Shown here: positions 19,603 through 55,145 of the stretch, piece by piece
How positions within the stretch are numbered: the first letter of the stretch is position 1
Layout: each line of letters begins with the position of its first letter
NCBI GenBank assembly: GCA_025611195.1
Contig: GCA_025611195.1_4718.1
DNA length: 64,000 bases
Source of the DNA: a phage
Direction: 5' to 3' (one strand)
Position numbers and translations under genes: made by a program
The notes under the pieces: model-generated
What the model was told of the DNA's origin: nothing
What the model saw: the letters and a program-made list of their open reading frames with translations, nothing else
Databases searched by the model: none

Positions 19603-20496
19603 TTATTCGGAAACGTTGTAACCGAATACCGCTTTACCGTAGGTGTGAGTACCGTCAGCTAATGACAGCACCAACACGTGGTTGTACGTAGCGTTAACGC
19701 CTTTATCGGTGGAATCGGTGGTAGCACCGTTATAGACGAAAGTAGCCGTTTGCAGATTGGCTTTCAGCTCGGTGATGATCTCGTCGCCCACACCCGTCTG
19801 CTCTTTGATCAGCGTGGTCAGGTTACCTGCCAGGCTTTCATCGATCTTGGTTTCGTTACTGGTAATCGCCTGTAAACCTGCGGTGTAGGTACTGAAGTCT
19901 AACGGATAGGTTAACAGACGCGCTGAGGTCTTGGTGCCATCGCCTTCATCAACGTAGGTTAAGTTACCCAGGTTGGTAACCTTGATGATGTTGGACAGAT
20001 CCAGCGTGGTGTTATAAACCTTAACTTGAACAGAACCGTACCAAGCCAGCGAATCTTCTTTGGCTTTCAGGGTGATCGTCTGGATACCATGATCGTCGAA
20101 GGTAACCGGCGTAGCTAACGTATCGGCTTTGATGTCTTTCGCTTTATCCAGGAACTTCTCACCGGAAGGTGTGATCATACCGTAGCGTTGAGCTACAAGG
20201 TCAACCACATCACCGATGGTGGTGTTTTTATTAACGTTAACGCGTACGGCGATCTTCTGGAACCACTTAGCCAGATCCAGACGATGATAGGTAACATCGC
20301 GGTCATTGAAGTAAGGAGTACCTTCACCAGGGCTAAGCGTTAAAGTTGCATCTGGAGCAGAATCGCTTTTGGATTTAAGAACGTATTTAAGGTCGGTGGG
20401 TTTGAAGTTGGCACCCGTATCGGCGTTGAGTGTGTTAATCTCATCAACGATAAGTTGCCAAGGTGTTTTTAAAGTAAGTGATACTTGAGCTGTCAT
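19603..20496 (-). CDS. putative virion structural protein (YxRxDL / LAW[TY]GSV paralog family)
   Basis: Motifs YHRLDLAKWF and SLAWYGSVQVKVY shared with 20643, 31567, 33389 and 34251 genes; fairly host-adapted codons; GAGGAAG SD. Confidence 0.55.
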   Translation of the reverse strand: MTAQVSLTLKTPWQLIVDEINTLNADTGANFKPTDLKYVLKSKSDSAPDATLTLSPGEGTPYFNDRDVTYHRLDLAKWFQKIAVRVNVNKNTTIGDVVDLVAQRYGMITPSGEKFLDKAKDIKADTLATPVTFDDHGIQTITLKAKEDSLAWYGSVQVKVYNTTLDLSNIIKVTNLGNLTYVDEGDGTKTSARLLTYPLDFSTYTAGLQAITSNETKIDESLAGNLTTLIKEQTGVGDEIITELKANLQTATFVYNGATTDSTDKGVNATYNHVLVLSLADGTHTYGKAVFGYNVSE

Positions 20497-20533
20497 TTTC
20501 TTCCTCGATGGTTGTTACATTACTCTCAAAAGA

Positions 20534-20547
20534 TGTAAACGTTTACA
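20534..20547. promoter_or_regulatory. perfect 14-bp palindrome TGTAAACGTTTACA
   Basis: Centred in the 146-bp divergent region between two codon-optimised structural genes (19603..20496 and 20643..21185), flanked by TATATA runs. Confidence 0.35.
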
Positions 20548-20642
20548 GAAATTAATATATCTTTATATATAAAATGTAAATACTATGGAGAACGACTCCG
20601 ACTCTCCTTTTCGACCATCAAAAAATCAGAGGATACATAATC

Positions 20643-21185
20643 ATGGCCTTAGACTTTAACAAAGCAGCCAAATCCCTTCTGCTTGATCTTATCAACACCA
20701 AAGCAACCCGCCCACTGACTGAAGAAGAACTGCAGTTCGGTACTCCGGGAGCATCTTCCGAACATGAAAAGAACACCGTTATCCAGCTGGATGCTGCAGC
20801 TGAAGCAGCTAACCTGCAGGGTACTCAGCAGTTCTACTACGATCGTCTGGCTCTGTCCGAAGTTTTCGCTGATGTAACCAGCGATGTTACTTTCGAACTG
20901 CCGCACGGCACTGACAGCATTAAGGCTTCCGAGCTGGTAAGCAAGCTGGTCACCAAATTCGGTCTGGCTTCCCTGACCGGTGAAATCAATGAAGAAACCT
21001 TCCAGCTGTCTGCTGGCACTGTTGGTGAAGTAACCCTGACTGCGATCGAGGGTGGTCTGGTATATACCGGCACCCTGCAGGTTGCACTGACCTACGCACC
21101 AGCACCGAAAGACGAACTGGCAACCGTTCTGGCGAATAACGTAGCTGAAGGTTTCGTGAAACCTGAAGTTGCTGTCGTTGGCTAA
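20643..21185 (+). CDS. abundant small structural protein (short member of the same paralog family)
   Basis: Strongly biased codon usage (CTG, GGT, ACC, GAA) like the capsid gene; motifs FYYDRLALSEVF and GGLVYTGTLQVALTY; GAGGA SD; double stop codon. Confidence 0.6.
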   Translation: MALDFNKAAKSLLLDLINTKATRPLTEEELQFGTPGASSEHEKNTVIQLDAAAEAANLQGTQQFYYDRLALSEVFADVTSDVTFELPHGTDSIKASELVSKLVTKFGLASLTGEINEETFQLSAGTVGEVTLTAIEGGLVYTGTLQVALTYAPAPKDELATVLANNVAEGFVKPEVAVVG

Positions 21186-21384
21186 TAAGCACGTAGAGCA
21201 ATAGTATGGGTTTTGTACAGCTCGGCTATTGCTCTTCTACAATTTGGTTGTAACAATCTGCGTGGTTGCACGCTTATCTTTCTCAATGAGCGCTTCATAC
21301 GAAGCGTGGTGTTGAAAGGGTTGTGGATCTCCTCAAGCGGCCAGGGACCCAGACCAACCTGAATAAACACAAACACATGTTAAG

Positions 21385-21416
21385 CCCCTCCTCATCCGTT
21401 ATTGGGTGGGGAGGGG
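21385..21416. terminator. GC hairpin with U-rich tail
   Basis: 13-bp stem CCCCTCCTCATCC/GGGTGGGGAGGGG (two G-U pairs), loop GTTATT, then TCTTATACGTCTTTAT; between convergent genes. Confidence 0.45.
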
Positions 21417-21479
21417 TCTTATACGTCTTTATGCGTTCCGTTCGTTCTGGAGCGTTTTAGGACGGTTTATGATGGTGTT

Positions 21480-22115
21480 TTACTCAACACTGAACCCGTT
21501 CAAGATGATCGCTTCATAACGCTTACGTTCACGACGTTTGCGTGCCTGCCAACCGTAGATGAATTTCTCATCTTTCTCGCGTCGCTCTGCTAACTCGATG
21601 TAATAAGTGCTCTGCATATCCAGCATCGCATCGATGAGATAATCCTTACCGGTTGCACCACGCTTAGCGATGTATGCGTCGAGCGCGCTTAACGTCGCAG
21701 GTCCCATCAAACCGTCGGCGTTGATATTTTTCCAGTAAGTTTGGCGGTTGTTCATGACGTTCAGATAACGCTGGAGGTTCTTAACCGGAACGGTTTTGCC
21801 TGCGTTGATACCCAGGTCAAAGAGACGATCAGCCAAGAACACGGAACGTTTCATGACCTCATCAAGCTTCATCTTATCCCAGAAGTGGGTCTTGTAGATA
21901 AAGAACGCCATTTCCGTGGTAAGGTTACGCATGTTACCGTCCCAGCCGAATTTCGTTTTCAGCGTGGTTTTGTATTGATCGGCGAGTGTTTTCGTAATGC
22001 CGTGGTTCGTGATTCCGCCCGAATCATCGGGATCGTCGACGTAACCTGCTTCGATGCTAGTTTTGTCACGAATTATGAATTCGCAAGTAAAATCTTTTTC
22101 AGTAATCTTAGCCAT
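21480..22115 (-). CDS. endolysin (GH108-type lysozyme with C-terminal peptidoglycan-binding domain)
   Basis: N-terminal EAGYVDDPDDSGGITNHGIT matches the GH108 catalytic motif; GAGGAG SD 5 nt before ATG. Confidence 0.75.
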   Translation of the reverse strand: MAKITEKDFTCEFIIRDKTSIEAGYVDDPDDSGGITNHGITKTLADQYKTTLKTKFGWDGNMRNLTTEMAFFIYKTHFWDKMKLDEVMKRSVFLADRLFDLGINAGKTVPVKNLQRYLNVMNNRQTYWKNINADGLMGPATLSALDAYIAKRGATGKDYLIDAMLDMQSTYYIELAERREKDEKFIYGWQARKRRERKRYEAIILNGFSVE

Positions 22116-22241
22116 TAGAACTCCTCATTTAAATAACGATTTAGAGGAACAGGAAGGGTCTAGAACGCGATAAACGATTTAACCCAGGCAAACCCTAGAT
22201 TAAACTTTTCGAAGCGTTACAACGCGTTCTAGAACGCTGAA

Positions 22242-24290
22242 TTAAATACCCTTGGTTCCTTTCACGTGATGTGCAATTTCTTCAACCATTGCACGCAGGG
22301 CACGAAGTTGTTGGTCGTGTTCATACCAACCGCCTAACAGAACCCCGCTATACACCATGGTGTCAAGACTTAACAGCCCTTTATCTGATACGTTGATCAT
22401 TTCCGGGAACTGTTCTTGAACACGCTGTGCGATAACACCGATCTTCTCGACATCAGGATCGTAGTTGTGACGGAAACGAGCGAGTCCGCTATGTGCCATC
22501 TCACGTAAACGATCACTGAAAGATTCCGGATGGTCTTTCAGATAACGGATGTCATGTTTACTGCGTTCATCAGAACGGATGTATGCGTTAGGAACATCGA
22601 TGTTGCTGTTGAAGTACAGCGCACTACCGCCACCGGCAGAGTTCCCCCAATAGAAGCTGGTTAAGATGCTACCCCCGTTACCTGTAACGTGCACCGTGCT
22701 GCCTACACGGGTTCCCCCACTACCATCAACGAAGACAAGCTTGTTCCCGCTGTAAGAACCCCAGAACAAACGGCTGTCGATGATGTTTGTTGCAGCGAGG
22801 CGAGCGTTACGTGGTGTAGAATACACGGTGTTAACATCTTGCTGTGCTTGCGCATCGGAAGCGATACCGTAGTTCTGAACATTCCCTAAGCCTACCTGGG
22901 CTTTGTTAACGGCGTGAGGGTTATCCCGACGGTTAGCGTGAGCATTAACCAGATCGCCCGCCAGTTTTTGAATAGCCCAGTTGGTAGATTGTGGCGTCAT
23001 ATAGCGGTTAGTTGCAGAACCACCTTGCGCTTCAGCTTGGTTAGCAGTTGGATAGTTCTCAACGCTTCCCAACCCTACCTGTGCTTTAGACACTTGGTGC
23101 GGGTTGTTCTTGTCGGCGATGTGCGCATTAAGCGGAACTAACGCGAAGGTCTCAATGGACGCTTTGGTGGTGTTCGGTGCCATTAATCGGTTAGCTGCAA
23201 CACCCGCACGCGCTTCTTCTTCAGAAGCCATCGGATAGTCTTGCACATTCCCTAACCCAACCTGCGCCTTGGTTACTCTGTGTGGGTTGTTGTAATCGGC
23301 TTTATGCGCATTAAGTGGAATCAATGCGAACTGTTCAATCGCTGCAACGGTACGTAGCGGTGTCATGAAACGGTTGTTCGCTGTTCCGGCTTTCGCCTCA
23401 TCATCCGAAGCGGTCGGGAAGTTATCAACGTTCCCAAGGTTAACCTGTGCTTTGGTGACGCTATGTGGGTTATCTCGACGGTTAGCATGCGCGTCGACTA
23501 GATCGCCCGCCAGTTTAGCAATCGCCCATCCAACCGTCTGTGCTGTCATGTATCGGTCAGGTGCGGTACCGGCTTCTGCCTCCGCCTTGTTTGCGGTAGG
23601 ATAGTTCTGTACGTTACCTAGTCCGACTTGGGCTTTTGTTACTTCATGCGGGTTATCGGTACGGTTAGCGTGCGCGTAATGCAGATCGGTCAGATCTTTA
23701 TCCGCTGCTTGCATGTCTTTGCGTAACTGATCGATTGCCGCCCAGAGACGGTTATCGGACGCAGCATCACCGATGAGTATTGCGGCTTTTAGCGAATAGA
23801 TCGCTAAGCAAAGATGTTCGGTACCGTAGATAGCACTAACGTGGTGGATGTGTGGTTCAGGCGGATAAAGTTCCGGTTTGTTCTTGATGTCGTCCCAGTT
23901 GATCGGACGATCGTCAAGTTTGAGTTCTTCGATAGCCTGATACAACGCATCAATAAGACTTACGTAAACACCACCGATGATACGATAGTCGTTAACTAAT
24001 GTACCCTCGATGTCATCGTTGATGATGGCGATGGCCGCACAGATTTCTTTACCAGCGTAAAGCGTAGCGTCCTGATACAAGAAAATGGGTTTGTAATCCA
24101 CGCCGCGTACCAGTGTCTTACCGGTAAGCTTTTCGGTGATAACCAGACTTTCGGTGAAGAACGGTCCGCCATCGAGGGCGTAACATTTATTCTCGGTTCG
24201 TGGAACGGTGTGCTCTTCACCAACGATGTGGTTGCTATCGAGCGTGCCGGTCCAGTCCTCGGGGTACTTCAGGGTAATTGGTGTTGACAT
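22242..24290 (-). CDS. tail fibre protein with C-terminal intramolecular chaperone (S74-like) domain
   Basis: Five NPHxVTKAQVGLGNVxNY repeats; C-terminal ~110 aa beginning SDERSKHDI resembles the self-cleaving chaperone domain of fibres/endosialidases. Confidence 0.8.
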   Translation of the reverse strand: MSTPITLKYPEDWTGTLDSNHIVGEEHTVPRTENKCYALDGGPFFTESLVITEKLTGKTLVRGVDYKPIFLYQDATLYAGKEICAAIAIINDDIEGTLVNDYRIIGGVYVSLIDALYQAIEELKLDDRPINWDDIKNKPELYPPEPHIHHVSAIYGTEHLCLAIYSLKAAILIGDAASDNRLWAAIDQLRKDMQAADKDLTDLHYAHANRTDNPHEVTKAQVGLGNVQNYPTANKAEAEAGTAPDRYMTAQTVGWAIAKLAGDLVDAHANRRDNPHSVTKAQVNLGNVDNFPTASDDEAKAGTANNRFMTPLRTVAAIEQFALIPLNAHKADYNNPHRVTKAQVGLGNVQDYPMASEEEARAGVAANRLMAPNTTKASIETFALVPLNAHIADKNNPHQVSKAQVGLGSVENYPTANQAEAQGGSATNRYMTPQSTNWAIQKLAGDLVNAHANRRDNPHAVNKAQVGLGNVQNYGIASDAQAQQDVNTVYSTPRNARLAATNIIDSRLFWGSYSGNKLVFVDGSGGTRVGSTVHVTGNGGSILTSFYWGNSAGGGSALYFNSNIDVPNAYIRSDERSKHDIRYLKDHPESFSDRLREMAHSGLARFRHNYDPDVEKIGVIAQRVQEQFPEMINVSDKGLLSLDTMVYSGVLLGGWYEHDQQLRALRAMVEEIAHHVKGTKGI

Positions 24291-24303
24291 AACCTGGAGG
24301 TCC

Positions 24304-26907
24304 TTATAACGTGACTGTACCTAATTTGGTTGTCTTATTGAGATTGATGACAGAAATCTGGGTATCGCTGGTCGTAATCGTCCCGATGTTAACGCGCTGC
24401 CCTTTATCATCTTCTTGCTTGTGGATGGTTAACTCCAATTCTAACTGGTCGCCATTAGGAACAACGGAAACGTACCATGTTTTATTACCTGGTGAGCTAT
24501 TATAGTCTTTTAGGTTATAATGGCCTTTAGGTAGGGTCATGACTTTACCAGCAAACAAGCAAGTGATGTCTTCGTTGATGTAGATATCGTAACCGGAAGC
24601 AGCAACGACCGTAGAAACCATGTAACGGTTTTTAACAGCGAGAGCTTTATATTCCGCAACGGAATTGCCGACAACACTAAAGACTTGACCGCCATTACCC
24701 ATCACCGTAGAGACTGCGGCATCAACATAACCGATTCCCCACACCGGATGTACGTTCCAACGATAGCCGCTTGACTGTAGGTAAGCATACAAACCTTCAA
24801 ATGCGATGGTTGTCCAGTTCCCATCGTTTTGTCGTCCAGCTCGGAACTGATAGGTGTTCTGGTTCCCTGCAGACTGACGTAAATACGGAACATGTCCAGC
24901 AACAAGCCACCCATCACTCACCTTCTTGTAAGCTAATACACCCCAGGCGGCATTCTGACTGTAGATATTTGTTGAATCGGGGTCTTCGACATAACCCAGC
25001 AGTTTGGTTACGCCCGTCACCGTAATAGCGCCTTTACGTGCGGATACGGTAACCTCCGCAGCGATTCGTCCATGTACGCGTGTGCTGGTATTACAGCCAG
25101 CAACAAACAGAATACACGGTGCGTTTGTACCATCTGGAGGTACGGCTAACGCATGCTGCCACCGACTGACGCCAGACACCTTGTTTCCGGTATATGCGTT
25201 CCACACGAGCTGTCCGCCTGCTTGCAGGTTGGCTGCGGTTATGCTGATGGCTTCACCGGAAGGTGCGAGTTTGGTGGCGTCGTATCCGATTTTACCGGAT
25301 AAGTTTGAATCAGTTAAATAAGACCCGCTAACTACCGTATTGTCATCGCTTAAATGTACGGTTAGGAAAGGTCGCGACATTTGACCTGCGCTAACCACCA
25401 CGTTGTTGGAAGGCGGAAAACCGTAAACGTCAATACCTTCTCCCTGATAACGGTAATCGAGATTCCAGTCATAGGTCACTAGACGAGCCTCAAAATTACC
25501 CTGTCCACCACCCGTACGTGAGTTAACGAAAACCTTGTTTTTAGAAAAGAAACCCAGGTAACCATGGGACGCGAGTGCACCTACGATGCGATCCCCGACG
25601 TTTTTCCAGTATGAGTCGTACTGTATTCCACCAGTAGGACCGAGTTTGGCGAGTTCGTCGAACACATTTCCAGAGAAACCGTTGATGGTGTACGATCGCG
25701 CTTGGGGGGCGGATAAATTGTCGTTTTGGATAATGGCTACCTGACCGCGTTCGTTGATTTCGATATTCCCGGTACCGTTACCCGAACGCCATTGCCAGAA
25801 ACCATCGTTATACTCACTTGTTCCATCGGTTGTAGTAGATGGTCCTACCCAGTCTATCCCGCTATCTGTTGACACGTATGTGGATTGTCCAGCGCCCGGG
25901 TTCATGCTGTAACTGTTGTTGGCGGTTTCAAAATCGAGATAGAACTGATGTAGCCCGTTCTTTTGCTGGTTTTTGCGGTTGTTCGTCCACCATGCCGAAG
26001 CAATCAGAATACGTGCTTTAGTACCTTTGGTTGCTGCGAGCATACGAATCTGAGCACGCCAGACGGTTTGACCGATCCCATCAGAAGGGAAATCGTTAGT
26101 AGTTATGCGGTTGCAGACAATCATCTCGGCACTGTTGCTTATCGCCGTTCCTTCTATCGTTCTACCGCTAATATTCGTAAGCTGTGTAGCCGCTACGCTG
26201 CCACCGCTGGGACCGATGGAAGATTTGGTTACGGTATAAACATTTAAGTAGAGTTTATAACTGTTAGTGCCAGCGATAGCGATGTAGATTTTACCGTTAA
26301 TTTCCCAACAGCAGATATGCGGTGATGTATCAACAAAGTTGGCAAGACTACCATCAAGATACATGGCGACATGTTTGGATGCGTCAAACGTTCCGTCTGT
26401 CAACGCGATAAACATTTTAGGGCTGCTACCGTCTTCAAAAGCAGCTTGACCTAACATGATACCGTTCTGGTGACAGTATATCACCGTAGGAATACGATCG
26501 AGCGTTGCGGGCTCATAGCGGCGGCTGGTTGGAATAACTTCAGTGATCTGTCCGTTTTGATTTGTTTTACAGATAACGTAGTAAACCCCTTTCTTTACGC
26601 TGTTCGTTGCCGAACGCAGTAACACGATGGTACCATCGGATTCACGGCATACGCCGTAACGACGGTATTTGTCGTTTAGACAGATAGCACCATCAGCGGA
26701 GCCTTCGATTGCCAGAGGAAAATAACTTTGATCCCCAACCTGTTCGATATCGGTTACGCCGATATCGATGTATTTTTCCATCTCGGTGTCGAACTCAGCG
26801 GTACTATAGGCACCGAGATCGCTCGCCTTTAGTCCCGTTGGGTTGTCGCGACTGGCGATACGTGTATTAACGCTACTCACCAGTTCACTGAACTTTTTCA
26901 TTGCCAT
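24304..26907 (-). CDS. large tail/receptor-binding protein
   Basis: 867-aa G/S/T/N-rich ORF between the fibre genes; N-terminus carries RDNPTGLKASDLG, a single fibre-repeat-like motif. Confidence 0.55.
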   Translation of the reverse strand: MAMKKFSELVSSVNTRIASRDNPTGLKASDLGAYSTAEFDTEMEKYIDIGVTDIEQVGDQSYFPLAIEGSADGAICLNDKYRRYGVCRESDGTIVLLRSATNSVKKGVYYVICKTNQNGQITEVIPTSRRYEPATLDRIPTVIYCHQNGIMLGQAAFEDGSSPKMFIALTDGTFDASKHVAMYLDGSLANFVDTSPHICCWEINGKIYIAIAGTNSYKLYLNVYTVTKSSIGPSGGSVAATQLTNISGRTIEGTAISNSAEMIVCNRITTNDFPSDGIGQTVWRAQIRMLAATKGTKARILIASAWWTNNRKNQQKNGLHQFYLDFETANNSYSMNPGAGQSTYVSTDSGIDWVGPSTTTDGTSEYNDGFWQWRSGNGTGNIEINERGQVAIIQNDNLSAPQARSYTINGFSGNVFDELAKLGPTGGIQYDSYWKNVGDRIVGALASHGYLGFFSKNKVFVNSRTGGGQGNFEARLVTYDWNLDYRYQGEGIDVYGFPPSNNVVVSAGQMSRPFLTVHLSDDNTVVSGSYLTDSNLSGKIGYDATKLAPSGEAISITAANLQAGGQLVWNAYTGNKVSGVSRWQHALAVPPDGTNAPCILFVAGCNTSTRVHGRIAAEVTVSARKGAITVTGVTKLLGYVEDPDSTNIYSQNAAWGVLAYKKVSDGWLVAGHVPYLRQSAGNQNTYQFRAGRQNDGNWTTIAFEGLYAYLQSSGYRWNVHPVWGIGYVDAAVSTVMGNGGQVFSVVGNSVAEYKALAVKNRYMVSTVVAASGYDIYINEDITCLFAGKVMTLPKGHYNLKDYNSSPGNKTWYVSVVPNGDQLELELTIHKQEDDKGQRVNIGTITTSDTQISVINLNKTTKLGTVTL

Positions 26908-26919
26908 TATTCACCTCGA

Positions 26920-27405
26920 TTAAATAGGCGAGTCGGGAAGCTGACCATCATCGATCTCGATGGCGGCCACCTTACGTGTCGCAGCAAGATGTGATGTACC
27001 CTGGACTTTGTTCCAGGTACCGATACGCATGGTGTTTTTGTAGCTGCTATCGCTATCGTTCAGCGTGTAAACAAAACCGCTATCGGTTACGGCAAGATAG
27101 ATCCAGCCTACAGACTCACTGATACCCGACACGTCCAAAGTTGTTGCTGGCACCGTCCCTACCACCGTGTTGTATTCCGCTGTACCTTGGCCAATGCTGA
27201 TCCGCCCGTTGCTGTAACTGGCTGCCGGAAGCGTTTTATTTCGACTGAAGAAAAGAAACGGAAGGTAACGCTGGGTAACAAGCGGTGCAAGTTTAGGAGC
27301 CACTTCGGTCTTAGTGTAGACATCTGTTTGTTCTGGCGTTACCTCGTGAGGGTTCTTTTGGGTAAGATACGTTCCCCATTCAGAAAGCAGTGTTGATAGC
27401 TTCAT
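26920..27405 (-). CDS. small tail-fibre-associated protein
   Basis: N-terminal KNPHEVTPEQTDV resembles one fibre repeat; lies in the fibre module. Confidence 0.5.
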   Translation of the reverse strand: MKLSTLLSEWGTYLTQKNPHEVTPEQTDVYTKTEVAPKLAPLVTQRYLPFLFFSRNKTLPAASYSNGRISIGQGTAEYNTVVGTVPATTLDVSGISESVGWIYLAVTDSGFVYTLNDSDSSYKNTMRIGTWNKVQGTSHLAATRKVAAIEIDDGQLPDSPI

Positions 27406-27409
27406 GCGG

Positions 27410-27919
27410 TTACCCCATGTAACGTTTTTGGCCGAGGATGAAGACTTTGTTAAATACCACCGAAGTGATTCCTGATGCGTTACAGCTTACCTGCCCGACG
27501 CGAATTGCTGTTGACGTATCGACCCCAGCACTACTCTGCCAGCTCCAATCAATCGATCCGTCTTTCTGATGAATGAAAAGATAACCGGTTTTGTTCGCCC
27601 AGTCGGAAGTAAGATTTTTGATGTCTAACGTTCCTTTCGCCAGAATATAGTCGGTACCGGCGATCATGACGGGGATTTCAGGATACGAGATTACCGTACC
27701 GCTAGCGGTAACGTTGCTGATGCGATCACTACGGATATCGGTACAATCACCGAAATACGCTACGGGGAGTATCCCCTTAGGTAGCTTTTTGTCGATTCTC
27801 GTATCGATCGTGCTTTTATCGGGTGCGTCGATTTGCGCTGCAGTGACTTGGTTAGGGTTATCCTTCCTTGCATACCACGTCGTCATGCGAGCACCCAACT
27901 CACTCATTTTTGTGCCCAT
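27410..27919 (-). CDS. small tail-fibre-associated protein
   Basis: ORF 27410..27925 (GTG) trimmed to ATG 27919 with AGGA upstream; N-terminal RKDNPNQVTAAQIDA motif. Confidence 0.5.
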   Translation of the reverse strand: MGTKMSELGARMTTWYARKDNPNQVTAAQIDAPDKSTIDTRIDKKLPKGILPVAYFGDCTDIRSDRISNVTASGTVISYPEIPVMIAGTDYILAKGTLDIKNLTSDWANKTGYLFIHQKDGSIDWSWQSSAGVDTSTAIRVGQVSCNASGITSVVFNKVFILGQKRYMG

Positions 27920-27976
27920 TTTCACGTCCTATCGAAAAATAAAAAGAAGGAAAGGTGGGTAGAACCCACCCATCCA

Positions 27977-30130
27977 TTATAACGTTTCGAAGTCTTTTGC
28001 CTTGATGACCGCGTTGAAGTTGGCAAGGAATTCCTTAAGTAATGCTTGGAAAACATCGCGGAACGCCGCGTTCGTCTTCAAGCTGGTTAAATAATCGTTC
28101 TTAAGGTAATCACTAAGCTTACCGATCTTCTGCATTGTCACGCCTTCATCGTTCTCTCCGGGTTCCTGGCTATTGATATTAGCCCACTTGATCCCTTCGA
28201 GATCGCCATCAGCAAGGAAGTTAGCTGGCGTCTCATCATCGTTAAGGATTTTGATCGTGTCGCTGGATTCAATACCACCGTAAGCTTCCAGAAGCTGGTT
28301 GACGGTCAACTTATTGACGTTGATTGAACCATTAGCACCATCGATACCGAGTCCGGTACCCGTGATAGACGTTGCTGAAAGATCGATTGGTCCGGTTAAC
28401 TTACCCCCATTGATAGGGAGCGCACCGACTTGTTCGGCTGTGTGCGTGTGATCTGCTAACGCCGCGAACGCTGCAATCGACTTGTAAGTCGAGTACGGTG
28501 TCATGTACGCCGTCTGGTTAGTCCTGTCAGCAGCTTGCACATCGGTGGCGACAGCAAAGTCCTGTACGTTCCCTAACCCCACTTGTACCTTGGTTACTTC
28601 ATGCGGGTTACTCTTATCGACAACGTGTGCTGCAAAACCATCACCTGCTAAAGCGATGATCGCTGCTTTTGTCGCAGCCGGTGTCATATAGCGGTTGGTC
28701 GCTACACCTGTTTGCGCTTCCACATCAGAAGCAACAGGGTAGTTCTCAACACTCCCCAACCCAACCTGGGTTTTCGTTACCCTGTGCGGGTTCTCGGTAT
28801 TTGCGATGTGGCTACTGAACCCTTGACCAGCCATTTGCTCGATCGCGTAACGAACAAGTATTGGTGTCATGTACTTGTTGTTAGCCTGACCGTCGATCGC
28901 TTCTTGGGTAGTAGCAACCCCAAAGTTCTGCACACTTCCCAGACCGACTTGGGCTTTTGTCACCCCATGCGGGTTATTGGTGTTACCGATATGTTCGGTT
29001 ACGGTTGGGGTGATTAACGCTGCGATAGCGGCGGCTGTGGTCGCAGGCGTCATGTATTTGTTGTTAGCAACACCCGCACCAGCTTCCCCATTAGACGCTA
29101 CACCATAGTTCTGTACGTCCCCCAGCCCTACCTGTGCTTTCGTAACAGCATGAGGGTTGTTATTATCCTCGGTATGGGTTGTTAACGTAGCGTTGACATG
29201 ATCGATGCGTGTACTTAAGCCGTCCGTGATTGCCTTGATTGCTGCTCGTACACCCGCTGGAGTCGTGTACAGATTAGTGGCTGTACCGGTAACGGTTGTA
29301 TTATCATCGGCTACACCGTAGTTCTCAACGTCTCCGAGTCCCACCTGGGCTTTGGTCACCTTGTGTGGGTTGTTGCGGTTACTGATGTGTGCGGCGGCAC
29401 TATCACCACTAAGGTTAGCGATCATCTTGCGCGTCATCGCCAACGTCATGTACAGATTTTCACCGACAGTTTCCAGATCGCTCTCAGTCGCTGTTGTGAA
29501 ATTCTGCACATTCCCTAAGCCCACCTGGGCTTTCGTAACGCCGTGGGGATTATCGCGTCGATTCTCATGCTGTACTAACGCAGTCATTGCTTTATTGAAC
29601 CCTTCTTCAAGCGGTTCTTTCAATGACTCGATTGCAGCCACCACATCGTCCCACGTCATTGTGTCGGTTTCGACATTATGTTGGTGGTTGATTGGTGGGA
29701 ATACAGAAGGAACGTCGGCAACCTTTTCCCAGAACGTAACACGAGGATCGTAAAGGTTGTTGGCTAAAACGTTAAGAATTTGTTGTTGATCAAGTGTAAA
29801 CTCACCCCCCAGTGAATAGTAGTTCAGTTGCAACTGTCCACTGAATGCGGTGTCCAACAGCATGATGGAACCGTATAATTCCAGGCCGGTCAGCGCAGCC
29901 ATGGCACGGAAGGGGTGAGTGCATAAAAAGTCAACGCCTTCTTCCAGATACGCGTTTGTTTCAGGGTTGTAGATCTTTAACCCATTACGAAAATAGGGTG
30001 CGTATTTAGGAACGAGAAAGTTAAATCCGGTCCCCGTGGAAGGACGGACAGTGACGAGTTCTTCTGGAACCCATGCGCCATCCAAATTCCCCTGCGGGTT
30101 ATACGGAAGGCGTTTAATTTCATCTGTCAT
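27977..30130 (-). CDS. tail fibre protein
   Basis: Six NPHxVTKAQVGLG(N/S/D)V(Q/E)N(F/Y) repeats; N-terminal region similar to that of the 22242..24290 fibre; no chaperone domain. Confidence 0.8.
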   Translation of the reverse strand: MTDEIKRLPYNPQGNLDGAWVPEELVTVRPSTGTGFNFLVPKYAPYFRNGLKIYNPETNAYLEEGVDFLCTHPFRAMAALTGLELYGSIMLLDTAFSGQLQLNYYSLGGEFTLDQQQILNVLANNLYDPRVTFWEKVADVPSVFPPINHQHNVETDTMTWDDVVAAIESLKEPLEEGFNKAMTALVQHENRRDNPHGVTKAQVGLGNVQNFTTATESDLETVGENLYMTLAMTRKMIANLSGDSAAAHISNRNNPHKVTKAQVGLGDVENYGVADDNTTVTGTATNLYTTPAGVRAAIKAITDGLSTRIDHVNATLTTHTEDNNNPHAVTKAQVGLGDVQNYGVASNGEAGAGVANNKYMTPATTAAAIAALITPTVTEHIGNTNNPHGVTKAQVGLGSVQNFGVATTQEAIDGQANNKYMTPILVRYAIEQMAGQGFSSHIANTENPHRVTKTQVGLGSVENYPVASDVEAQTGVATNRYMTPAATKAAIIALAGDGFAAHVVDKSNPHEVTKVQVGLGNVQDFAVATDVQAADRTNQTAYMTPYSTYKSIAAFAALADHTHTAEQVGALPINGGKLTGPIDLSATSITGTGLGIDGANGSINVNKLTVNQLLEAYGGIESSDTIKILNDDETPANFLADGDLEGIKWANINSQEPGENDEGVTMQKIGKLSDYLKNDYLTSLKTNAAFRDVFQALLKEFLANFNAVIKAKDFETL

Positions 30131-30162
30131 GATGCGCCCTTTACAAGTTGTTAGTAAGTGTG

Positions 30163-30180
30163 GGATACCCTGGGGTATCC
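30163..30180. promoter_or_regulatory. 18-bp palindrome GGATACCCTGGGGTATCC
   Basis: Between divergent starts of the fibre gene (30130) and 30235..31515; AATATTACTGTAAC lies 20 nt downstream. Confidence 0.3.
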
Positions 30181-30234
30181 TGTGTTAACAGCGGTAAAAT
30201 ATTACTGTAACTATAAAATAAGGGGGCCTCTCCC

Positions 30235-31515: not shown

Positions 31516-31525
31516 ACAAACATAA

Positions 31526-47031: not shown

Positions 47032-47055
47032 CACCTAGGTAATGTAAGCGTCAAA
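47032..47055 (-). promoter_or_regulatory. variant of the conserved motif (candidate promoter)
   Basis: Plus-strand CACCTAGGTAATGTAAGCGTCAAA; about 150 nt upstream of ATG 46881. Confidence 0.35.
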
Positions 47056-47218: not shown

Positions 47219-49441
47219 TCAGTTAGTCTGAACCGGCAGCTTGATGTTTTCAGTGTAGACCTTACGCAGGTTCACAACGTTAATCAGACCCAGCAGCGGG
47301 CAGTTGTTAACGAAGCGGCAGCGAGGCTGAACCATGGTTTCTTTAGAAACCTGACCGTTACGGGTAACCTGAGCAACAGATACCAGTTCCGGTACATACA
47401 GGAACATACCGAAGGTCAGCGGATCCGGAGAACCCTGGATACCACGAGACAGGGTCACGAAGATCTTATCACGCAGCAGGACGTTCGGGTTATCTACAAC
47501 CACGAAGTTGAAGCTTACACCAACGGTACGGAAATCACCATCGGTCTGCAGGAACTGCGGGATGTAGTTGTCGGTTGCTACTACGCAACGCGGTTTCTCA
47601 TCAGCGTTGGAAGACAGCAGCTGCAGAGCTGGCTGATAACCAGACTCGGAGTACATGCGATATGCCATCTCACGAATCACGTTCATGATCGCAGCGGACA
47701 CTTCGGCACGACGTTCTGCAGTGGTGGTACCCTGAACAGATTTCGCCAGGTCCAGATTGATTTCTTCGAACCACGGACGGATCAGGTAACGACCGAAACC
47801 TTCGATCTGGATATCACCGAACTGACGGAAGCGAGAGGTCGCAACCGCTTTCAGTGCATCTTTGTAGCTGAACAGTTTCTCAACCATCAGGTTGTCGAAA
47901 CGTGCGTTAGCAGCTTGGATCAGAACGTCCAGGTCAGCAGCGTTTTCTTCCCAATCCAGCGGACGAGGAATAGAGAACGGAGCCAGCAGGCCGATTGCGT
48001 AACGTTCTTGCTTCATGTTGAAGTCAAGGTGTTTACCACGTTCACGACGGTTGCTGTTGTTACGGCGAATACGCAGTTCGTAACCAACCAGTTTGAAGCT
48101 CAGGTCGTCAGCCAGGTCTTTAAATTCTTGGCTCTTACGCGGCTGTTCGATGTTGTCCTGATCAACCAGGCGATACAGTTCAGCGTTAGCACCGTTAACA
48201 CGCAGACCTGCTTTCTCTACGTTGGAAGAACCGTAAACTTCGATAGCCAGCTGAGCAGCAGATTTCGCATCGATGATGTCCTGCAGCGCTTCAGCTTTCG
48301 CGCCTTTAACGTCAACGGTGTTCTCATCAACGAAGATGGAGTGGGTGTCGAACGCCAGGGTCATTTTGCGGAAGTCGCCTTCCAGGGATTTCTGGAAACC
48401 GTTGGTAATCAGACCGGATACGTCGAACGGAACGTAAGAGGTCTTGCTGTGCTTGGCTGATTTGATTTCCACCAGGATTTTGGTCAGCGTGATCTGAGCA
48501 TCCAGCGCGTCGGTGTTGTCGCTGTAACCGTTAGCCAGAATGCTATCGTCTTCAGCGATACCGATCATGTCGATCAGTTTATCAACAGCCAGGTAAGACG
48601 TTTTGTAAGTTACGCCTTTGATCTCGATGTCGCGCGGAGCAACGATAGTTTTGTCAACGAAGTACTGCGCGTTAGCATCGTCAGCACGATAGATCGGATG
48701 CAGATCGGTCACGTCGTTGGACAGAACGTCGTTGTACATGAACGCATCCAGCAGCGGACGACGTACCCAATCAGCCGGAGTACCGTCAGCGTTACGACGC
48801 AGGTGGTTGAACACCAGCGGACGACGGAAAGATACATCATAACCGATCTGGTTCGGAGCCAGAACGATGGTGTTGTACAGTTCGTTACCCATGCGGCTCA
48901 GACGAGAAGCCTTCACGTTGAACACAACGGAGTACGGCATCATGTCACGCAGTTCTTTCTGGTCGTAGGACAGCTGAACCAGTTCTTCAGATTCGCAACC
49001 GCAGGAATCAGCAGCCATCATGACGAAGTTAGAGCTGTCAACTTCACGGCCAGACGGAGTGGTGCTGATGTTCATGGAACGTGCTTGTTTAGCATATTCC
49101 ACCGGGTTGCCATGAGCCAGCATGATCAGTGCTGCTGCACGAGCCTGCTGTGCGTTCATGGTGAACAGCTGTTCTTCAATACGCTGCTTCTCTTCCGGAG
49201 TGGTGGTTTCGAAGCCCAGCATGGACAGAACCGGTTCTTCTGCTTTACGGATGTCGCTGCTGAAGCTCTTAACATCCATATCGTTAACCAGTTTGTCCAT
49301 GGATTTGAAATCAACCTTAGAAGCAGATTCCATAGACAGGAAGGTGTTCTCCAGACCTTTGTCTGCTGGTTTGCTACCATTAGCGGTCAGGAACTGGCGA
49401 GTGGCCGCGACCTGTTGGCTAAGAAGGGTTTTATCATTCAT
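47219..49441 (-). CDS. putative major capsid protein (jumbo-phage type)
   Basis: 740 aa, strongest host-optimal codon bias in the window, AAAGGA SD; size fits phiKZ-like capsid proteins; the assignment is inferred, not motif-proven. Confidence 0.6.
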   Translation of the reverse strand: MNDKTLLSQQVAATRQFLTANGSKPADKGLENTFLSMESASKVDFKSMDKLVNDMDVKSFSSDIRKAEEPVLSMLGFETTTPEEKQRIEEQLFTMNAQQARAAALIMLAHGNPVEYAKQARSMNISTTPSGREVDSSNFVMMAADSCGCESEELVQLSYDQKELRDMMPYSVVFNVKASRLSRMGNELYNTIVLAPNQIGYDVSFRRPLVFNHLRRNADGTPADWVRRPLLDAFMYNDVLSNDVTDLHPIYRADDANAQYFVDKTIVAPRDIEIKGVTYKTSYLAVDKLIDMIGIAEDDSILANGYSDNTDALDAQITLTKILVEIKSAKHSKTSYVPFDVSGLITNGFQKSLEGDFRKMTLAFDTHSIFVDENTVDVKGAKAEALQDIIDAKSAAQLAIEVYGSSNVEKAGLRVNGANAELYRLVDQDNIEQPRKSQEFKDLADDLSFKLVGYELRIRRNNSNRRERGKHLDFNMKQERYAIGLLAPFSIPRPLDWEENAADLDVLIQAANARFDNLMVEKLFSYKDALKAVATSRFRQFGDIQIEGFGRYLIRPWFEEINLDLAKSVQGTTTAERRAEVSAAIMNVIREMAYRMYSESGYQPALQLLSSNADEKPRCVVATDNYIPQFLQTDGDFRTVGVSFNFVVVDNPNVLLRDKIFVTLSRGIQGSPDPLTFGMFLYVPELVSVAQVTRNGQVSKETMVQPRCRFVNNCPLLGLINVVNLRKVYTENIKLPVQTN

Positions 49442-49590
49442 TGAAAGTATCCTTTACAGAATTAACTTATATAAGTCGGTCGATAGACCATAGCGTACAC
49501 GCGTGCATGCGCCACTATAGTATCAGTAAACACTTACCGTTATTGAGGTTGTGATACAACACTAAAAATGCCGCATAACTTTTCCCTACG

Positions 49591-51861: not shown

Positions 51862-51887
51862 ACGCAAAAAAAAAAGATTGTACGGTT

Positions 51888-51919
51888 CCCTCCTCCAACC
51901 CGTAAGGGAAGGAGGAGGG
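51888..51919. terminator. conserved two-tier GC hairpin (family copy)
   Basis: CCCTCCTCC/GGAGGAGGG stem, loop AACCCGTAAGGGAA; A10 run at 51866..51875; between convergent genes. Confidence 0.45.
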
Positions 51920-51934
51920 TTATGACCGCGGTGG

Positions 51935-52261: not shown

Positions 52262-52267
52262 GATAAC

Positions 52268-52669: not shown

Positions 52670-52739
52670 GAAAGTTGTCCTCTTAATTGGATATAAATTG
52701 TTGAGTTTGTGATTGGGAAATGAAAACGTTGTTTCGGTT

Positions 52740-53312
52740 TTAGACGATGAGTGACCAGGTGGTAAGCACACCGCTTGCGAATTCGAGCTTAAGACGTTTA
52801 CCGATAAGTTGTTGTTGAATCATCTTTTCAGTGATACGTCGATCTTGCTGAACCGCTTTATCAAACGCTTCTTTCGCTTCGGCTTGGTAGAAGTTCGTTT
52901 CTTCGTTGTCGTCGATCTCTTCGAGAGCGTCATCGTCGATGTCAGCAAGTTTCACTCGACCGTTTTCATCAGGTTGTTCTGCAGGCTCATTGTCATAAGG
53001 CGTGTCTTTTGTTGGTGCGACACGATGATGCAACTCGACCTGTGTTAACATGATCTCCATCTCACCATCGATAGGGATGATTTCATCGGCGCAGCCGTTT
53101 TCGGTCAGCTCTCGACTTTCCAGTAATGTCGTGGTGACAGAGAACACCTCTTCAACAGGAACCTCATCATCGTCGATAGTGTTAACCGTATTGCTGGTAA
53201 CTTCGGCAACGACCATCAAATCGAATGCGTGAGGATCACCTGGCATTTTGATTCCTGGAAGTTTGTTGAGGTACCAAGGATCGAGAATCATGATTTCTGG
53301 ATTAAACATCAT
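52740..53312 (-). CDS. acidic hypothetical protein
   Basis: 190-aa D/E-rich ORF with GAAAGG upstream of ATG. Confidence 0.45.
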   Translation of the reverse strand: MMFNPEIMILDPWYLNKLPGIKMPGDPHAFDLMVVAEVTSNTVNTIDDDEVPVEEVFSVTTTLLESRELTENGCADEIIPIDGEMEIMLTQVELHHRVAPTKDTPYDNEPAEQPDENGRVKLADIDDDALEEIDDNEETNFYQAEAKEAFDKAVQQDRRITEKMIQQQLIGKRLKLEFASGVLTTWSLIV

Positions 53313-53383
53313 TTTACCTTTCTATGTTAGGTGGATTGCGGATAGAAGAATCAATGCATAAACTAATTTAAGTTTGTTAAGGT

Positions 53384-54286
53384 TTACTTAGCCTTTGAGT
53401 TATGCGGACTAACATGCTGTTGTACTCGTTGGATTGTATCGTAGTACGGGTTAGATTGGTTGAACATGTTGTTGTGTGGGGGATAGCCATATGGCGCATT
53501 TTGCCTTGTTGGTGAGAAACCTTGTTGAGAAGGACGGTTTGAATTAACCGCGAGTACGTAGTAAACCAAATTTTGACGGTCGAATGTTCCTTCGTTTTTG
53601 AAAGTGTCGGCGTAGGCTTTTACCGCTGGAGTGAGCCTATCACCATCGGCTGTAATAATTGTACCGTCTGGGTAAACTTCCCGAACGACGCACCATGTTC
53701 CGATGAGAACATCTTTAGGTGCTGTATTACCATATCCGGTTGTAACGGTAAGGTAAGTATCGAACCCTTCAGAACAACAAGGATGACGATAGATGGGTCC
53801 TGTCATTTCCGTTCTATCGGTATCGCTACATTGTTCTATTGAGAGCGATGATGTGTCGGTTTTGAAATTGTCAAATTCTTTCTTTAAGTCGATTACGGGT
53901 TCTTTCGTATAGTACTTCTTGATTGCTTTGACGTAAAGATCAGGAACGGTTGTCAGCAATCCGTTATACCTGATTCTCAGGTTTTCGAGTAATCCAAAGA
54001 TGCTCGCGCATGCCTGTTCGCGAGGTTTTGTAAGATAAGAGATCCCCTCAGGAACGCTGGGATCTTTGAGAAAGAAGATTGCGTTATTGTCGTTGTGCGA
54101 TGCGTTGAAGAAAACGATTGATTCGATATATACGGAGCATAGGCTGTCATTGGCGTCGTCAGATAACACCCAGATGCACTCATCGGTCGTCTTGTTTAAA
54201 AGTTCTGTTTTGTCGACCAAACGTTGTTTCATTGCGAGGAAATGTGCCTGTTGTTCAGCAGTTAATTCACGATAAATAGTGGTCAT
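53384..54286 (-). CDS. hypothetical protein, paralog of 54372..55145
   Basis: ORF 53384..54364 trimmed to ATG 54286 (AAGGAG upstream); shared segment YRHPCCSEGFDTYLTVTTGYG...WCVVREVYPDGTIIT vs YIHPECHTTYDRYLTITGG...WRMIREIYPDGRIVT. Confidence 0.5.
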   Translation of the reverse strand: MTTIYRELTAEQQAHFLAMKQRLVDKTELLNKTTDECIWVLSDDANDSLCSVYIESIVFFNASHNDNNAIFFLKDPSVPEGISYLTKPREQACASIFGLLENLRIRYNGLLTTVPDLYVKAIKKYYTKEPVIDLKKEFDNFKTDTSSLSIEQCSDTDRTEMTGPIYRHPCCSEGFDTYLTVTTGYGNTAPKDVLIGTWCVVREVYPDGTIITADGDRLTPAVKAYADTFKNEGTFDRQNLVYYVLAVNSNRPSQQGFSPTRQNAPYGYPPHNNMFNQSNPYYDTIQRVQQHVSPHNSKAK

Positions 54287-54371
54287 GTTGGGCTCCTTGA
54301 TTACGATAAGGATGATTGCGGTTTTGTGGGTTTGGTAGGGCCCTAAACAAAGGAACCCTACCAATATTAGG

Positions 54372-55145
54372 TTAATCAGGATCGGCGTAGAAATGGTGAG
54401 GATAGCCGGAGTACGATCCTGCGTTACCGGCTATGGATTCTTTCTGGGAATCGACGACGAGCGCATAGAACTGTCGGGAATTTGTTAGCGTTGAGAAATA
54501 AGCGGAAAGGACTTTTTCATTCAATGCATCACAAGGTAGGCAGGTGCGACCGCAAAACGTCACGATACGGCCGTCAGGATAGATCTCACGAATCATTCTC
54601 CACTCACCGATATCCACTGGTGATGGCGCTGCTACACCACCTGTTATCGTTAAGTAACGATCGTACGTGGTATGGCATTCAGGATGAATATAGATCGGCT
54701 TGTTCGTTTCGACAGGTTCCGAAGTATCTCGACGACTAAGAAGCTCAACGACTTCAAGATAAATCGTTGGTAGATCGCGGAGAATACCGGTGCTACGACG
54801 TTTCTTTGTGATTCGCGGACGAATCTCGTTGAGAGCGTATTCGAGCTTACGTTCAGCTTCGTACGCATCGAGTTTTATCAAGCGACCCGGTTCATCGGAA
54901 TGATCCTGAGTTACGTAAACGAAATACGTGTCGCCTTTTGCAGCGTGAAAGATTCGAGCGACCTTAAATGTTTCTACGGTACGATAACCAAGGCGCGATT
55001 GATTTTCCACAGGAGAAAATATCCAATGCCGTCCTTCGTCAGCCTCAACAATTTCGTTGAAACTATCTGTCTGTTCTGGGACCTGGTAGTCAGCCAGTAA
55101 TGTGTCGAGAGCATCATCAGCCAGTTTGATGTAAATATCTGTCAT
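54372..55145 (-). CDS. hypothetical protein, paralog of 53384..54286
   Basis: ATG 55145 with GAGGA upstream; preceded by the TATATTAC-type motif and a palindrome. Confidence 0.5.
   Translation of the reverse strand: MTDIYIKLADDALDTLLADYQVPEQTDSFNEIVEADEGRHWIFSPVENQSRLGYRTVETFKVARIFHAAKGDTYFVYVTQDHSDEPGRLIKLDAYEAERKLEYALNEIRPRITKKRRSTGILRDLPTIYLEVVELLSRRDTSEPVETNKPIYIHPECHTTYDRYLTITGGVAAPSPVDIGEWRMIREIYPDGRIVTFCGRTCLPCDALNEKVLSAYFSTLTNSRQFYALVVDSQKESIAGNAGSYSGYPHHFYADPD

Follow-up and report, generated by a model that had tools for sequence, protein, structure and literature searches.

The stretch of phage DNA analysed here (contig GCA_025611195.1_4718.1, 64,000 nucleotides (nt); hereafter the window) carries the hexamer TGTAAA a short distance upstream of five genes. 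A sequence-only reading of this DNA had proposed that the hexamer is a shared late-promoter or initiation element of codon-optimised structural genes, and all five strings are indeed found at the places named. The genes concerned, with their counterparts in Escherichia phage vB_EcoM_Goslar (hereafter Goslar), and the five hexamers are as follows.

47219-49441, minus strand: capsid gene, corresponding to Goslar gp41, the major capsid protein
19603-20496, minus strand: gene 19603, corresponding to Goslar gp22, a DUF7941 virion fibre protein present at ~580 copies per virion
20643 (start), plus strand: gene 20643, corresponding to Goslar gp23, a DUF7941 paralogue of gp22 present at ~2,140 copies per virion
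27977-30130, minus strand: fibre gene, corresponding to Goslar gp29, a tail-fibre-like virion protein
54372-55145, minus strand: gene 54372, part of a two-gene block that is absent from Goslar
49453-49458, minus strand: TGTAAA of the capsid gene, 11 nt to the ATG
20542-20547, minus strand: TGTAAA of gene 19603, 45 nt to the ATG
20575-20580, plus strand: TGTAAA of gene 20643, 62 nt to the ATG
30140-30145, minus strand: TGTAAA of the fibre gene, 9 nt to the ATG
55173-55178, minus strand: TGTAAA of gene 54372, 27 nt to the ATG

The gene map of the whole window is collinear with that of Goslar, running from the end of the Goslar record into its first ~58 kb, and the 12-kb stretch that holds the TGTAAA sites is 91.7% identical between the two phages. 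Goslar, a jumbo phage of the Chimalliviridae, forms a nucleus and encodes RNA polymerases of its own. In the model established for phiKZ, an injected virion RNA polymerase (vRNAP) transcribes the early genes and a non-virion polymerase (nvRNAP) transcribes the middle and late genes, such that phage transcription is independent of the host RNA polymerase (RNAP).

Upstream intergenic DNA was taken for each of the 247 annotated Goslar coding sequences, all of which were validated, and for 58 window genes defined by homology. Four Goslar-like genomes were compared, namely those of the window phage, Goslar and two IMG/VR contigs; a search for relatives suitable for footprinting returned just these three further genomes, and the next ones share ~33% capsid identity and are too distant for non-coding comparison. 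The capsid, gp58, gp61, gp245 and 176757 regions are nearly invariant among the four genomes, and conservation is therefore uninformative there. The gp22/gp23 spacer is the sole region with useful variation. Virion copy number, from a quantitative virion proteome, and the codon adaptation index (CAI) served as proxies for expression, with E. coli weights for the latter after Sharp and Li (1987).

The five TGTAAA strings are not a single element; they fall into four groups, and TGTAAA should not be annotated as a late promoter. Across the window the hexamer is not enriched (37 occurrences versus 43.2 expected). In the upstream intergenic DNA of the window it occurs six times in the sense orientation versus 1.47 expected, a count reached in 0 of 300 shuffles. 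In this same test it ranks 36th of 1,910 hexamers, and two of its six counts come from a single palindrome. Upstream of all Goslar genes, the enrichment disappears: there are 10 sense sites versus 5.8 expected (22 of 300 shuffles), rank 366 of 3,620, and likewise 10 antisense sites. The same balance holds in tandem intergenic regions of Goslar, where orientation is unambiguous (4 sense, 4 antisense), and unbiased, mismatch-tolerant 9-mer discovery does not recover TGTAAA. Its distance to the ATG at Goslar sense sites varies from 0 to 74 nt, and it is missing from most of the known late structural genes, among them those for sheath, tube and baseplate. The hexamer contains no TATG and bears no resemblance to mapped jumbo-phage promoters. 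Upstream of gene 20643 it is not conserved, reading TGTAAA, TGTGAA, TGTAAA and TATGAA in the four genomes, and gene 54372 follows an early-type promoter and has low codon adaptation. The sequence-only reading had itself held that an absence of enrichment upstream of other late genes would speak against its proposal, and this is essentially what is found, because there is no general TGTAAA enrichment upstream of other genes.

Other parts of that reading fared variously. Three of the five genes are codon-optimised (capsid, 20643 and 19603 hold CAI ranks 1 to 3 of 58), whereas the fibre gene (rank 21 of 58) and gene 54372 (rank 36) are not. The TATATAA run reported near most copies is not general: TATATA is scarcer than expected in Goslar intergenic DNA (2 versus 7.6), and the run also differs between related genomes. 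The caveat that some copies overlap a Shine-Dalgarno (SD) sequence is correct and matters, as described below. Finally, two genuine signals had been caught, in that the 19603 copy is half of a non-random palindrome and TGTAAA is associated with the most expressed virion genes.

The TGTAAA of gene 19603 lies inside the palindrome TGTAAACGTTTACA. Upstream of this gene, TTTCTGTAAA and TTACATCTTTTGAGAGT are invariant in the four genomes and the 3-base spacer between the arms varies (CGT, TAC, CAC and CAC). Given invariant arms and a variable spacer at the gp22 copy, we searched for GTAAA-N3-TTAC. This sequence is a previously undescribed, rigid palindromic box that is found almost only between genes. 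Its copies in the window are listed here.

20534-20547: perfect 14-bp palindrome TGTAAACGTTTACA, with core GTAAA-CGT-TTAC at 20535-20546, in the divergent spacer between gene 19603 (minus strand) and gene 20643 (plus strand)
19487-19498: second copy, GTAAACTTTTAC (TCTGTAAACTTTTAC at 19484-19498), ~105 nt 3' of the gene 19603 stop codon
30194-30205, plus strand: GTAAAATATTAC, in the divergent spacer between the fibre gene (minus strand) and gene 30235 (plus strand), 29 nt upstream of the 30235 ATG
30247-30258, plus strand: GTAAAAACTTAC, 12 nt inside gene 30235 and 53 bp from the copy at 30194-30205
49526-49537, plus strand: GTAAACACTTAC, upstream of the capsid gene and 85-96 nt from its ATG, reading GTAAGTGTTTAC on the capsid-sense strand

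When both strands of the window are counted, GTAAA-N3-TTAC gives 7 hits at these five places versus 0.67 expected, and 0 of 100 shuffles reach 7. The copies at 19484-19498 and 20535-20549 form an inverted pair flanking gene 19603 (15 nt, 93% complementary, 1036 nt apart). The copy at 30194-30205 is identical in Goslar (position 26414), and its neighbour at 30247-30258 may be functional or may be kept by coding constraint alone. Overall, the palindrome is present in the control regions of four of the five genes that had been cited for TGTAAA; only the TGTAAA of gene 19603 is part of one.

The Goslar genome gives the stronger statistic. There, 14 of 17 GTAAA-N3-TTAC hits are intergenic versus ~1.2 expected (P = 4e-14), and a scan of arm spacings reveals enrichment at N=3 only, with N0-2 and N4-8 yielding 0-1 intergenic hits. 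Every copy consists of the inverted repeat GTAA-N4-TTAC plus at least one 5-bp arm. Twelve distinct Goslar sites follow this palindrome rule, of which 10 lie wholly between genes and another spans a stop codon; five or six of the 12 are perfect 5+5 palindromes. The sites are distributed as follows.

Goslar: gp22/gp23 spacer
Goslar: 3' of gp22, forming an inverted pair around gp22
Goslar: gp29/gp30 spacer, with a second copy 53 bp away just inside gp30
Goslar: capsid upstream region
Goslar: sheath/gp219 spacer, 197128-197165, with divergent TTATGC on both sides
Goslar: chmA/gp245 spacer
Goslar: upstream of gp69, gp144 and gp103
Goslar: adjoining the stop codons of gp68, gp243 and gp224

Copies thus precede gp22, gp30, gp219, gp144, gp245 and gp69. 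None lies upstream of the vRNAP genes gp78, gp196, gp205, gp207 and gp210. At the sheath/gp219 site the palindrome GTAATATTTTAC is flanked at 1-2 nt by TTATGC motifs (cgCATAAtt-GTAATATTTTAC-g-TTATGcc), an arrangement that looks like a symmetric bidirectional late promoter serving the tail sheath gene and gp219.

A possible precedent for the box exists in phiKZ. The middle motif of that phage is given, in the part of Yakunina et al. (2015; PMC4666361) that cites Ceyssens (2014), as 5'-AAanTTACc-3' centred about -24, and the middle promoter P78M is published there as carrying AAAATTACC (PMC4666361). Read directly from the phiKZ genome, P78M is tagtGTAAAaTTACCaaatgtgttaaataTATG, i.e. GTAAAaTTACC, with a TATG 18-19 nt downstream. 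Its arms, GTAAA and TTAC, are those of the Goslar element. Similarly, the Goslar gp22, gp245 and gp144 copies (3 of the 6 gene-proximal ones) have T(A/G)ATG 17-20 nt downstream. The phiKZ middle promoters are not used in vitro by nvRNAP alone, and Yakunina et al. suggested that a DNA-binding protein might recruit the polymerase to them (PMC4666361).

Rather than a promoter element, the palindrome might be an operator for a dimeric phage DNA-binding protein (a repressor, an activator or an insulator-like factor) that acts from variable positions and in either orientation. The element has the attributes of an operator, being two-fold symmetric in every copy, with a fixed half-site spacing and a mostly regulatory location. 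Its positions are variable and sometimes promoter-less. Copies are paired at the start of gene 30235, where they are 53 bp apart, and also on either side of gene 19603, and two divergent TTATGC motifs have the sheath/gp219 copy exactly between them. The proposal of a recruiting protein for phiKZ middle promoters also fits. No cognate binding protein was identified, however, no candidate having been examined; among annotated Goslar proteins, gp115 is transcriptional-regulator-like and gp119 has a SANT/Myb domain. Extra GTAAA half-sites do not cluster significantly around the palindromes. Furthermore, six copies are followed at 29-68 nt by an ATG on the same strand and have their GTAAA arm on the side away from it, as expected for a directional promoter box, and the palindrome shares TTAC with the early promoter and resembles P78M. 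On balance we consider a pure operator possible, though on the unlikely side. The dimeric-operator model stays alive because of the symmetry of the palindrome and its promoter-less positions.

The second genuine signal is the association of TGTAAA with abundant virion proteins. In Goslar, the hexamer is found upstream of 5 of the 15 highest-copy virion genes compared with 5 of the 232 other genes (Fisher 9e-5), and no other hexamer is more strongly associated with these 15 genes. The family-wise permutation p value is 0.02, rising to 0.08 when intergenic length is matched. With the dinucleotide composition of high-copy leaders controlled, 5 occurrences are observed versus 0.63 expected, an excess similar to that of SD hexamers and of CCTATG/CTATGG. 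When genes outside the window region are counted as an independent replication, the result is 2 of 10 versus 4 of 178 (p=0.03), with gp58 and gp61 as the positive genes, and the three highest-CAI Goslar genes (gp41, gp58 and gp23) all carry the hexamer. The association is real but modest.

Outside the palindrome, the recurrences of TGTAAA could also have arisen by chance from AT-rich leaders and from A-rich spacers that precede GGA-type SD sequences. Some hexamer common to five upstream regions is expected when 64 kb are read, and the ranks of TGTAAA in the window and in Goslar, its lack of strand bias and the length-matched p of 0.08 all agree with this explanation. In addition, high-copy leaders are AT-richer than others (63.5% versus 58.1%), and in the zone from -26 to -6 AAAGGA is the commonest hexamer while TGTAAA ranks 181st. 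The composition-controlled excess and the replication outside the window argue against chance, as does a 12-mer that gp41 and gp58 share in the same register. We judge chance to be a rather unlikely explanation.

If TGTAAA does not mark late promoters, another sequence should, and phiKZ offers a candidate. Its late promoter is 5'-T(-3)ATG(+1)-3', read by the nvRNAP subunit gp123 (PMC4666361; PMC12809450). All four TATG bases are required, and the 5' end of the transcript is the last base (G) of the motif. The top intergenic hexamer of both genomes is TTATGC (17 versus 3.3 in Goslar, 7 versus 0.67 in the window), and 54 of 299 [CT]TATG[GC] sites are intergenic versus 21 expected. Upstream of Goslar genes TATG occurs 58 times in the sense and 35 times in the antisense orientation, with a density peak 30-45 nt before ATGs. 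A TATG at 30-70 nt is present for 7 of 10 high-copy virion genes versus 27 of 117 others (p=0.004), and many late structural genes without TGTAAA have a TATG in this interval. CCTATG and CTATGG rank next to TGTAAA for association with high-copy genes. About 20 TTATGC copies directly follow GC-rich hairpins, and copies without a hairpin are found before the capsid, sheath, gp219 and gp40 genes. Within the window, three sites concern the genes under discussion.

49488-49493, minus strand: CTATGG, candidate late start of the capsid gene, with G as +1 at 49489 and a predicted leader of 48 nt
49573-49578, minus strand: TTATGC, second candidate capsid start, 131 nt upstream of the ATG
20583-20588, plus strand: CTATGG, candidate late start of gene 20643, with G as +1 at 20587 and a leader of 56 nt

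The predicted capsid leader opens with a small stem-loop, GGUC-UAUC-GACC, and the TATGGAGAACGACTCCGA that follows the CTATGG of gene 20643 is invariant in four genomes and is predicted to form a 5'-terminal stem-loop. As a whole, the leaders predicted for the capsid gene, gene 20643, gene 19603 and the fibre gene are no more stably folded than shuffled sequences, and the surroundings of UGUAAA contain no significant RNA structure. Gene 20643 alone has a TATG adjoining its TGTAAA (TGTAAATACTATGG), and at this place TATGG is conserved but TGTAAA is not. By analogy with phiKZ, (C)TATG(G/C) is most likely the better late-promoter candidate.

Several TGTAAA copies are instead fused to SD sequences. 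The capsid copy abuts its SD sequence as TGTAAAGGATAC-N5-ATG, and gp58, an inner-body-like protein that is the other most abundant virion protein of Goslar, has TGTAAAGGAAAC-N5-ATG in the same register. The full ribosome-binding regions read TGTAAAGGATAC-TTTCA-ATG (window 49442-49458, minus strand) and TGTAAAGGAAAC-AAATT-ATG (gp58 leader, 15092-15108 of the Goslar segment L002). These two genes, which have the highest CAI values, share 11 of 12 bases in register, TGTAAAGGA(T/A)AC-N5-ATG. That TGTAAAGGAWAC-N5-ATG precedes both of the most abundant virion proteins suggests selection for a strong context of ribosome binding. The fibre copy abuts a weak SD sequence (TGTAAAGGGCGCATC-ATG), and overall an SD-fused position, 9-13 nt from the ATG, is seen at 4 of the 10 Goslar sense sites. 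Neither rRNA complementarity nor structure was found at SD-proximal TGTAAA.

At gp61, a promoter would have to fit into a divergent spacer of only 34 nt. Syntenic short divergent spacers are found in phiKZ (gp88/gp89, 39 nt, 38955-38993 of segment L018) and in Goslar (gp62/gp61, 34 nt, 17732-17765 of segment L002), each with a T-rich run, then TG(C/T)AAA and then an SD sequence (CTGCAAACC in phiKZ, TTGTAAATAAGG in Goslar). Weak as this likeness is, no other hint of the SD-proximal hexamer was seen across genera.

A rival idea, in line with the sequence-only reading, is that (C/T)TGTAAA is a late promoter or initiator for nvRNAP that marks or adjoins transcription starts, in which case the capsid, gp58, gp61 and fibre leaders would be very short. 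Its position as the top hexamer of high-copy genes, its composition-controlled excess and its presence in all three highest-CAI genes speak for this idea, as do its presence in every virion gene that lacks an upstream TATG (gp22, gp29, gp58 and gp61) and the little room for a promoter at gp61. Because phiKZ-type promoters are recognised at the start site itself, a motif near the SD sequence would not be absurd. These points must be set against the missing genome-wide enrichment, the equal antisense count, the spread of 0-74 nt from the ATG and the absence of the hexamer from most late structural genes. The 20643 copy is unconserved beside a conserved TATGG, one copy lies in an early leader, and there is no likeness to TATG or to mapped jumbo-phage promoters. 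Moreover, the length-matched family-wise p is 0.08, and 3 of the 5 supporting genes had generated the hypothesis. We regard a TGTAAA late promoter as improbable.

The remaining copy, that of gene 54372, belongs to a different context. An early-like motif, ttcacgRcTA(T/C)ATTACCT(a/t)nGTGA (TATATTACCT), has a core identical to the phiKZ early (vRNAP) promoter TATATTAC, an AT-rich ~10-mer centred near -10. There are eight exact Goslar copies, one of them upstream of chmA, which is an early gene by RNA sequencing (RNA-seq) in Goslar. The window contains four copies, and the one upstream of gene 54372 is followed by a stem-loop.

5533-5542, minus strand: early-like motif
18911-18920, minus strand: early-like motif
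47037-47046, minus strand: early-like motif
55207-55216, minus strand: early-like motif cgacTATATTACCTaggtga, upstream of gene 54372
55178-55205, minus strand: 10-bp stem-loop GGUGAUAACA-N8-UGUUAUCACU, where the early transcript of gene 54372 is predicted to begin

The stem-loop has a predicted energy of -11.4 kcal/mol (z = -4.35, 0 of 200 shuffles), and its last base is the first T of the 54372 TGTAAA. As a general feature of early transcripts, a 5' stem-loop is convincing at just two of the four window copies. From the early motif upstream and the stem-loop in the leader, gene 54372 looks early. Pfam and PHROG searches give no match for it, and a structural function is not recognisable.

The explanation that we prefer assigns the five copies to four groups, and from the sequence evidence at hand we give it about an even chance of being right. 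The 19603 copy would be one arm of the rigid bipartite palindrome GTAAA-N3-TTAC, a presumed recognition site for the phage's own transcription machinery and the Goslar counterpart of the phiKZ middle box. Its direct reader could be a phage RNA polymerase or, as the two-fold symmetry of the palindrome suggests, a dimeric phage factor that brings a polymerase to the site. Late nvRNAP transcripts of the capsid gene and gene 20643 would most likely start within conserved CTATGG motifs, with G as +1, at 48 nt and 56 nt from the respective ATGs; these motifs would be homologous to the phiKZ late TATG. The SD-abutting copies (capsid and fibre, and gp58 and gp61 in Goslar) would belong to the translation-initiation region or 5' leader of highly expressed late mRNAs, and the 54372 copy would be incidental, lying in the leader of an early transcript. 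We infer these functions from observed positions, statistics, conservation patterns and the resemblance to phiKZ. A more specific version holds that the palindrome is the site of a dimeric phage-encoded factor, or a symmetric box of a modified phage RNAP, that activates strongly expressed virion genes in the phage nucleus, with the SD-proximal UGUAAAGGAWAC perhaps being a separate enhancer. This version is distinctly unlikely.

A number of observations weigh against the preferred explanation. Several palindrome copies have no following same-strand gene, namely that between the convergent genes gp224 and gp223, those right after the stop codons of gp68, gp104 and gp243, and that 3' of gene 19603. 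The distance from the palindrome to the nearest ATG ranges from 16 to 96 nt. The spacer is N1 in P78M and N3 in the Goslar element, a difference of 2 nt, and two relatives have TAAAG in place of the putative TAATG start at gp245. The phiKZ consensus, written AAWNTTACY, has 38 hits in Goslar, of which 3 are intergenic versus 2.7 expected. Thus, the palindrome is treated here as a box that may work like the phiKZ middle box, on the strength of its likeness to P78M and despite the unenriched consensus. As for the late promoters, TATG is weakly over-represented when composition is considered (58 versus 47 expected). Against a purely translational or incidental role of the SD-adjacent copies, the set of virion genes without an upstream TATG (gp22, gp29, gp58 and gp61) coincides with the set that carries TGTAAA, such that TGTAAA as the mark of an alternative start site would also fit.

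Several other candidates were tried and rejected. Host sigma-70 promoters, searched as -35/-10 pairs with 16-18 nt spacing, number 10 versus 16.6 expected in 18800-31000, with none at TGTAAA. The palindrome TGTAAACGTTTACA looks like a host LacI/GalR-type operator, by its likeness to cre/GalR consensus sequences; its central CG is absent from the other genomes and the other copies, and we set this candidate aside without a formal test. Moreover, the phage nucleus is expected to keep host factors out. The T4 late promoter TATAAATA has a counterpart one base off, TGTAAATA, at gene 20643 and gp61, and the 20643 site is not conserved. That promoter requires host RNAP and gp55. An upstream open reading frame (ORF) ending at the TAA of the capsid-leader TGTAAA was examined by eye, and the frame from the TATG ATG stops earlier. 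Rfam covariance models give no hit at the gathering threshold anywhere in the window.

Additional features of the window were noted. The strongest intergenic k-mer signal in both genomes is a GC-rich hairpin followed by (T)TTATGC(Y)G, with ~20 Goslar sites and the following sites in the window.

3007-3012, plus strand: hairpin-(T)TTATGC(Y)G
6504-6509, plus strand: hairpin-(T)TTATGC(Y)G
17719-17724, minus strand: hairpin-(T)TTATGC(Y)G
55252-55257, minus strand: hairpin-(T)TTATGC(Y)G
60558-60563, minus strand: hairpin-(T)TTATGC(Y)G
60588-60593, plus strand: hairpin-(T)TTATGC(Y)G, forming with the preceding site a bidirectional arrangement around one hairpin

Either a conserved terminator motif or a terminator joined to a late TATG start could account for this arrangement. 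The genes at 16849-17682, 53384-54364 and 54372-55145 (all minus strand) are present in the window phage and absent from Goslar, which retains a mere gp47 remnant near 55140-55241. The 53384-55145 block has its own early-type promoter. All three genes have zero Pfam matches, and the two tested against PHROGs (53384-54364 and 54372-55145) have zero there as well. Lastly, ~780 bp at 18822-19602, between genes 18039-18821 and 19603-20496, contain no ORF of at least 60 amino acids. This region holds three direct ~20-nt repeats with AAGATAAC (19057-19076, 19126-19145 and 19378-19397), an inverted copy at 19325-19344, an early promoter, one palindrome copy and a hairpin-TTTATG; it may be an origin of replication, a non-coding RNA or a regulatory hub.

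Promoter recognition by the non-canonical RNAPs of nucleus-forming jumbo phages is only partly understood. Late promoters of phiKZ consist of just TATG, and the review literature holds that middle and late promoters are not predictable bioinformatically. Our literature search turned up no promoter map of Goslar, which is the model chimallivirus of E. coli. The practical message for TGTAAA as a late promoter is negative. What is gained are concrete Goslar candidates: TATATTACCT for early promoters, (C/T)TATG(G/C), often right after a hairpin, for late promoters, and a palindromic box near capsid, sheath and fibre genes. A Goslar RNA-seq time course and ChmA-knockdown data already exist (bioRxiv 10.1101/2023.09.20.558163), and together with CRISPRi-ART such data make these predictions quickly checkable. 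If the box does prove to be the site of a phage factor or of a modified RNAP, E. coli chimalliviruses would gain their first defined sequence-specific regulatory site, and phiKZ-type middle promoters their missing recognition principle.

The candidate elements invite comparison with known systems. Highly expressed phage genes can carry A/U-rich translation enhancers next to the SD sequence, as in the leader of T7 gene 10, and the SD-fused TGTAAA sites of high-copy, high-CAI Goslar genes are similar in this respect; we know of no specific translation enhancer with the TGTAAA sequence. The late promoter of the AR9 nvRNAP (non-template 5'-AACA-N6-TA/G-3', with uracil-dependent recognition of the template strand) is likewise a short motif read by a non-canonical, multisubunit phage RNAP. 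However, it has no sequence likeness to TGTAAA or to the palindrome, and AR9 has uracil-containing DNA and is not a chimallivirus.

The closer parallels are with phiKZ. In the middle motif of phiKZ as in the Goslar palindrome, TTAC comes after an A-rich block; both lie upstream of certain virion genes, and both share TTAC with their respective early promoter (TATATTAC). Unlike the phiKZ motif, the Goslar element is an explicit and often perfect palindrome that is also present where no gene follows, and it is not found upstream of the vRNAP genes, which are middle genes in phiKZ. With respect to early promoters, TGTAAA is no part of the jumbo-phage vRNAP motif. GTAAA-N3-TTAC has the TTAC end of phiKZ TATATTAC, to which the GTAAAATATTAC copies match at 7 of 8 bases, whereas the upstream halves differ (ttcacggc in the early motif, GTAAA in the palindrome). 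For late promoters, the hairpin-TATGC arrangement is common to both phages, and the Goslar TATG seems to be extended to TTATGC or CTATGG. The promoter logic of Goslar likely parallels that of phiKZ, with TATATTAC as the early signal, TATG as the late signal and the palindromic box perhaps representing the middle class.

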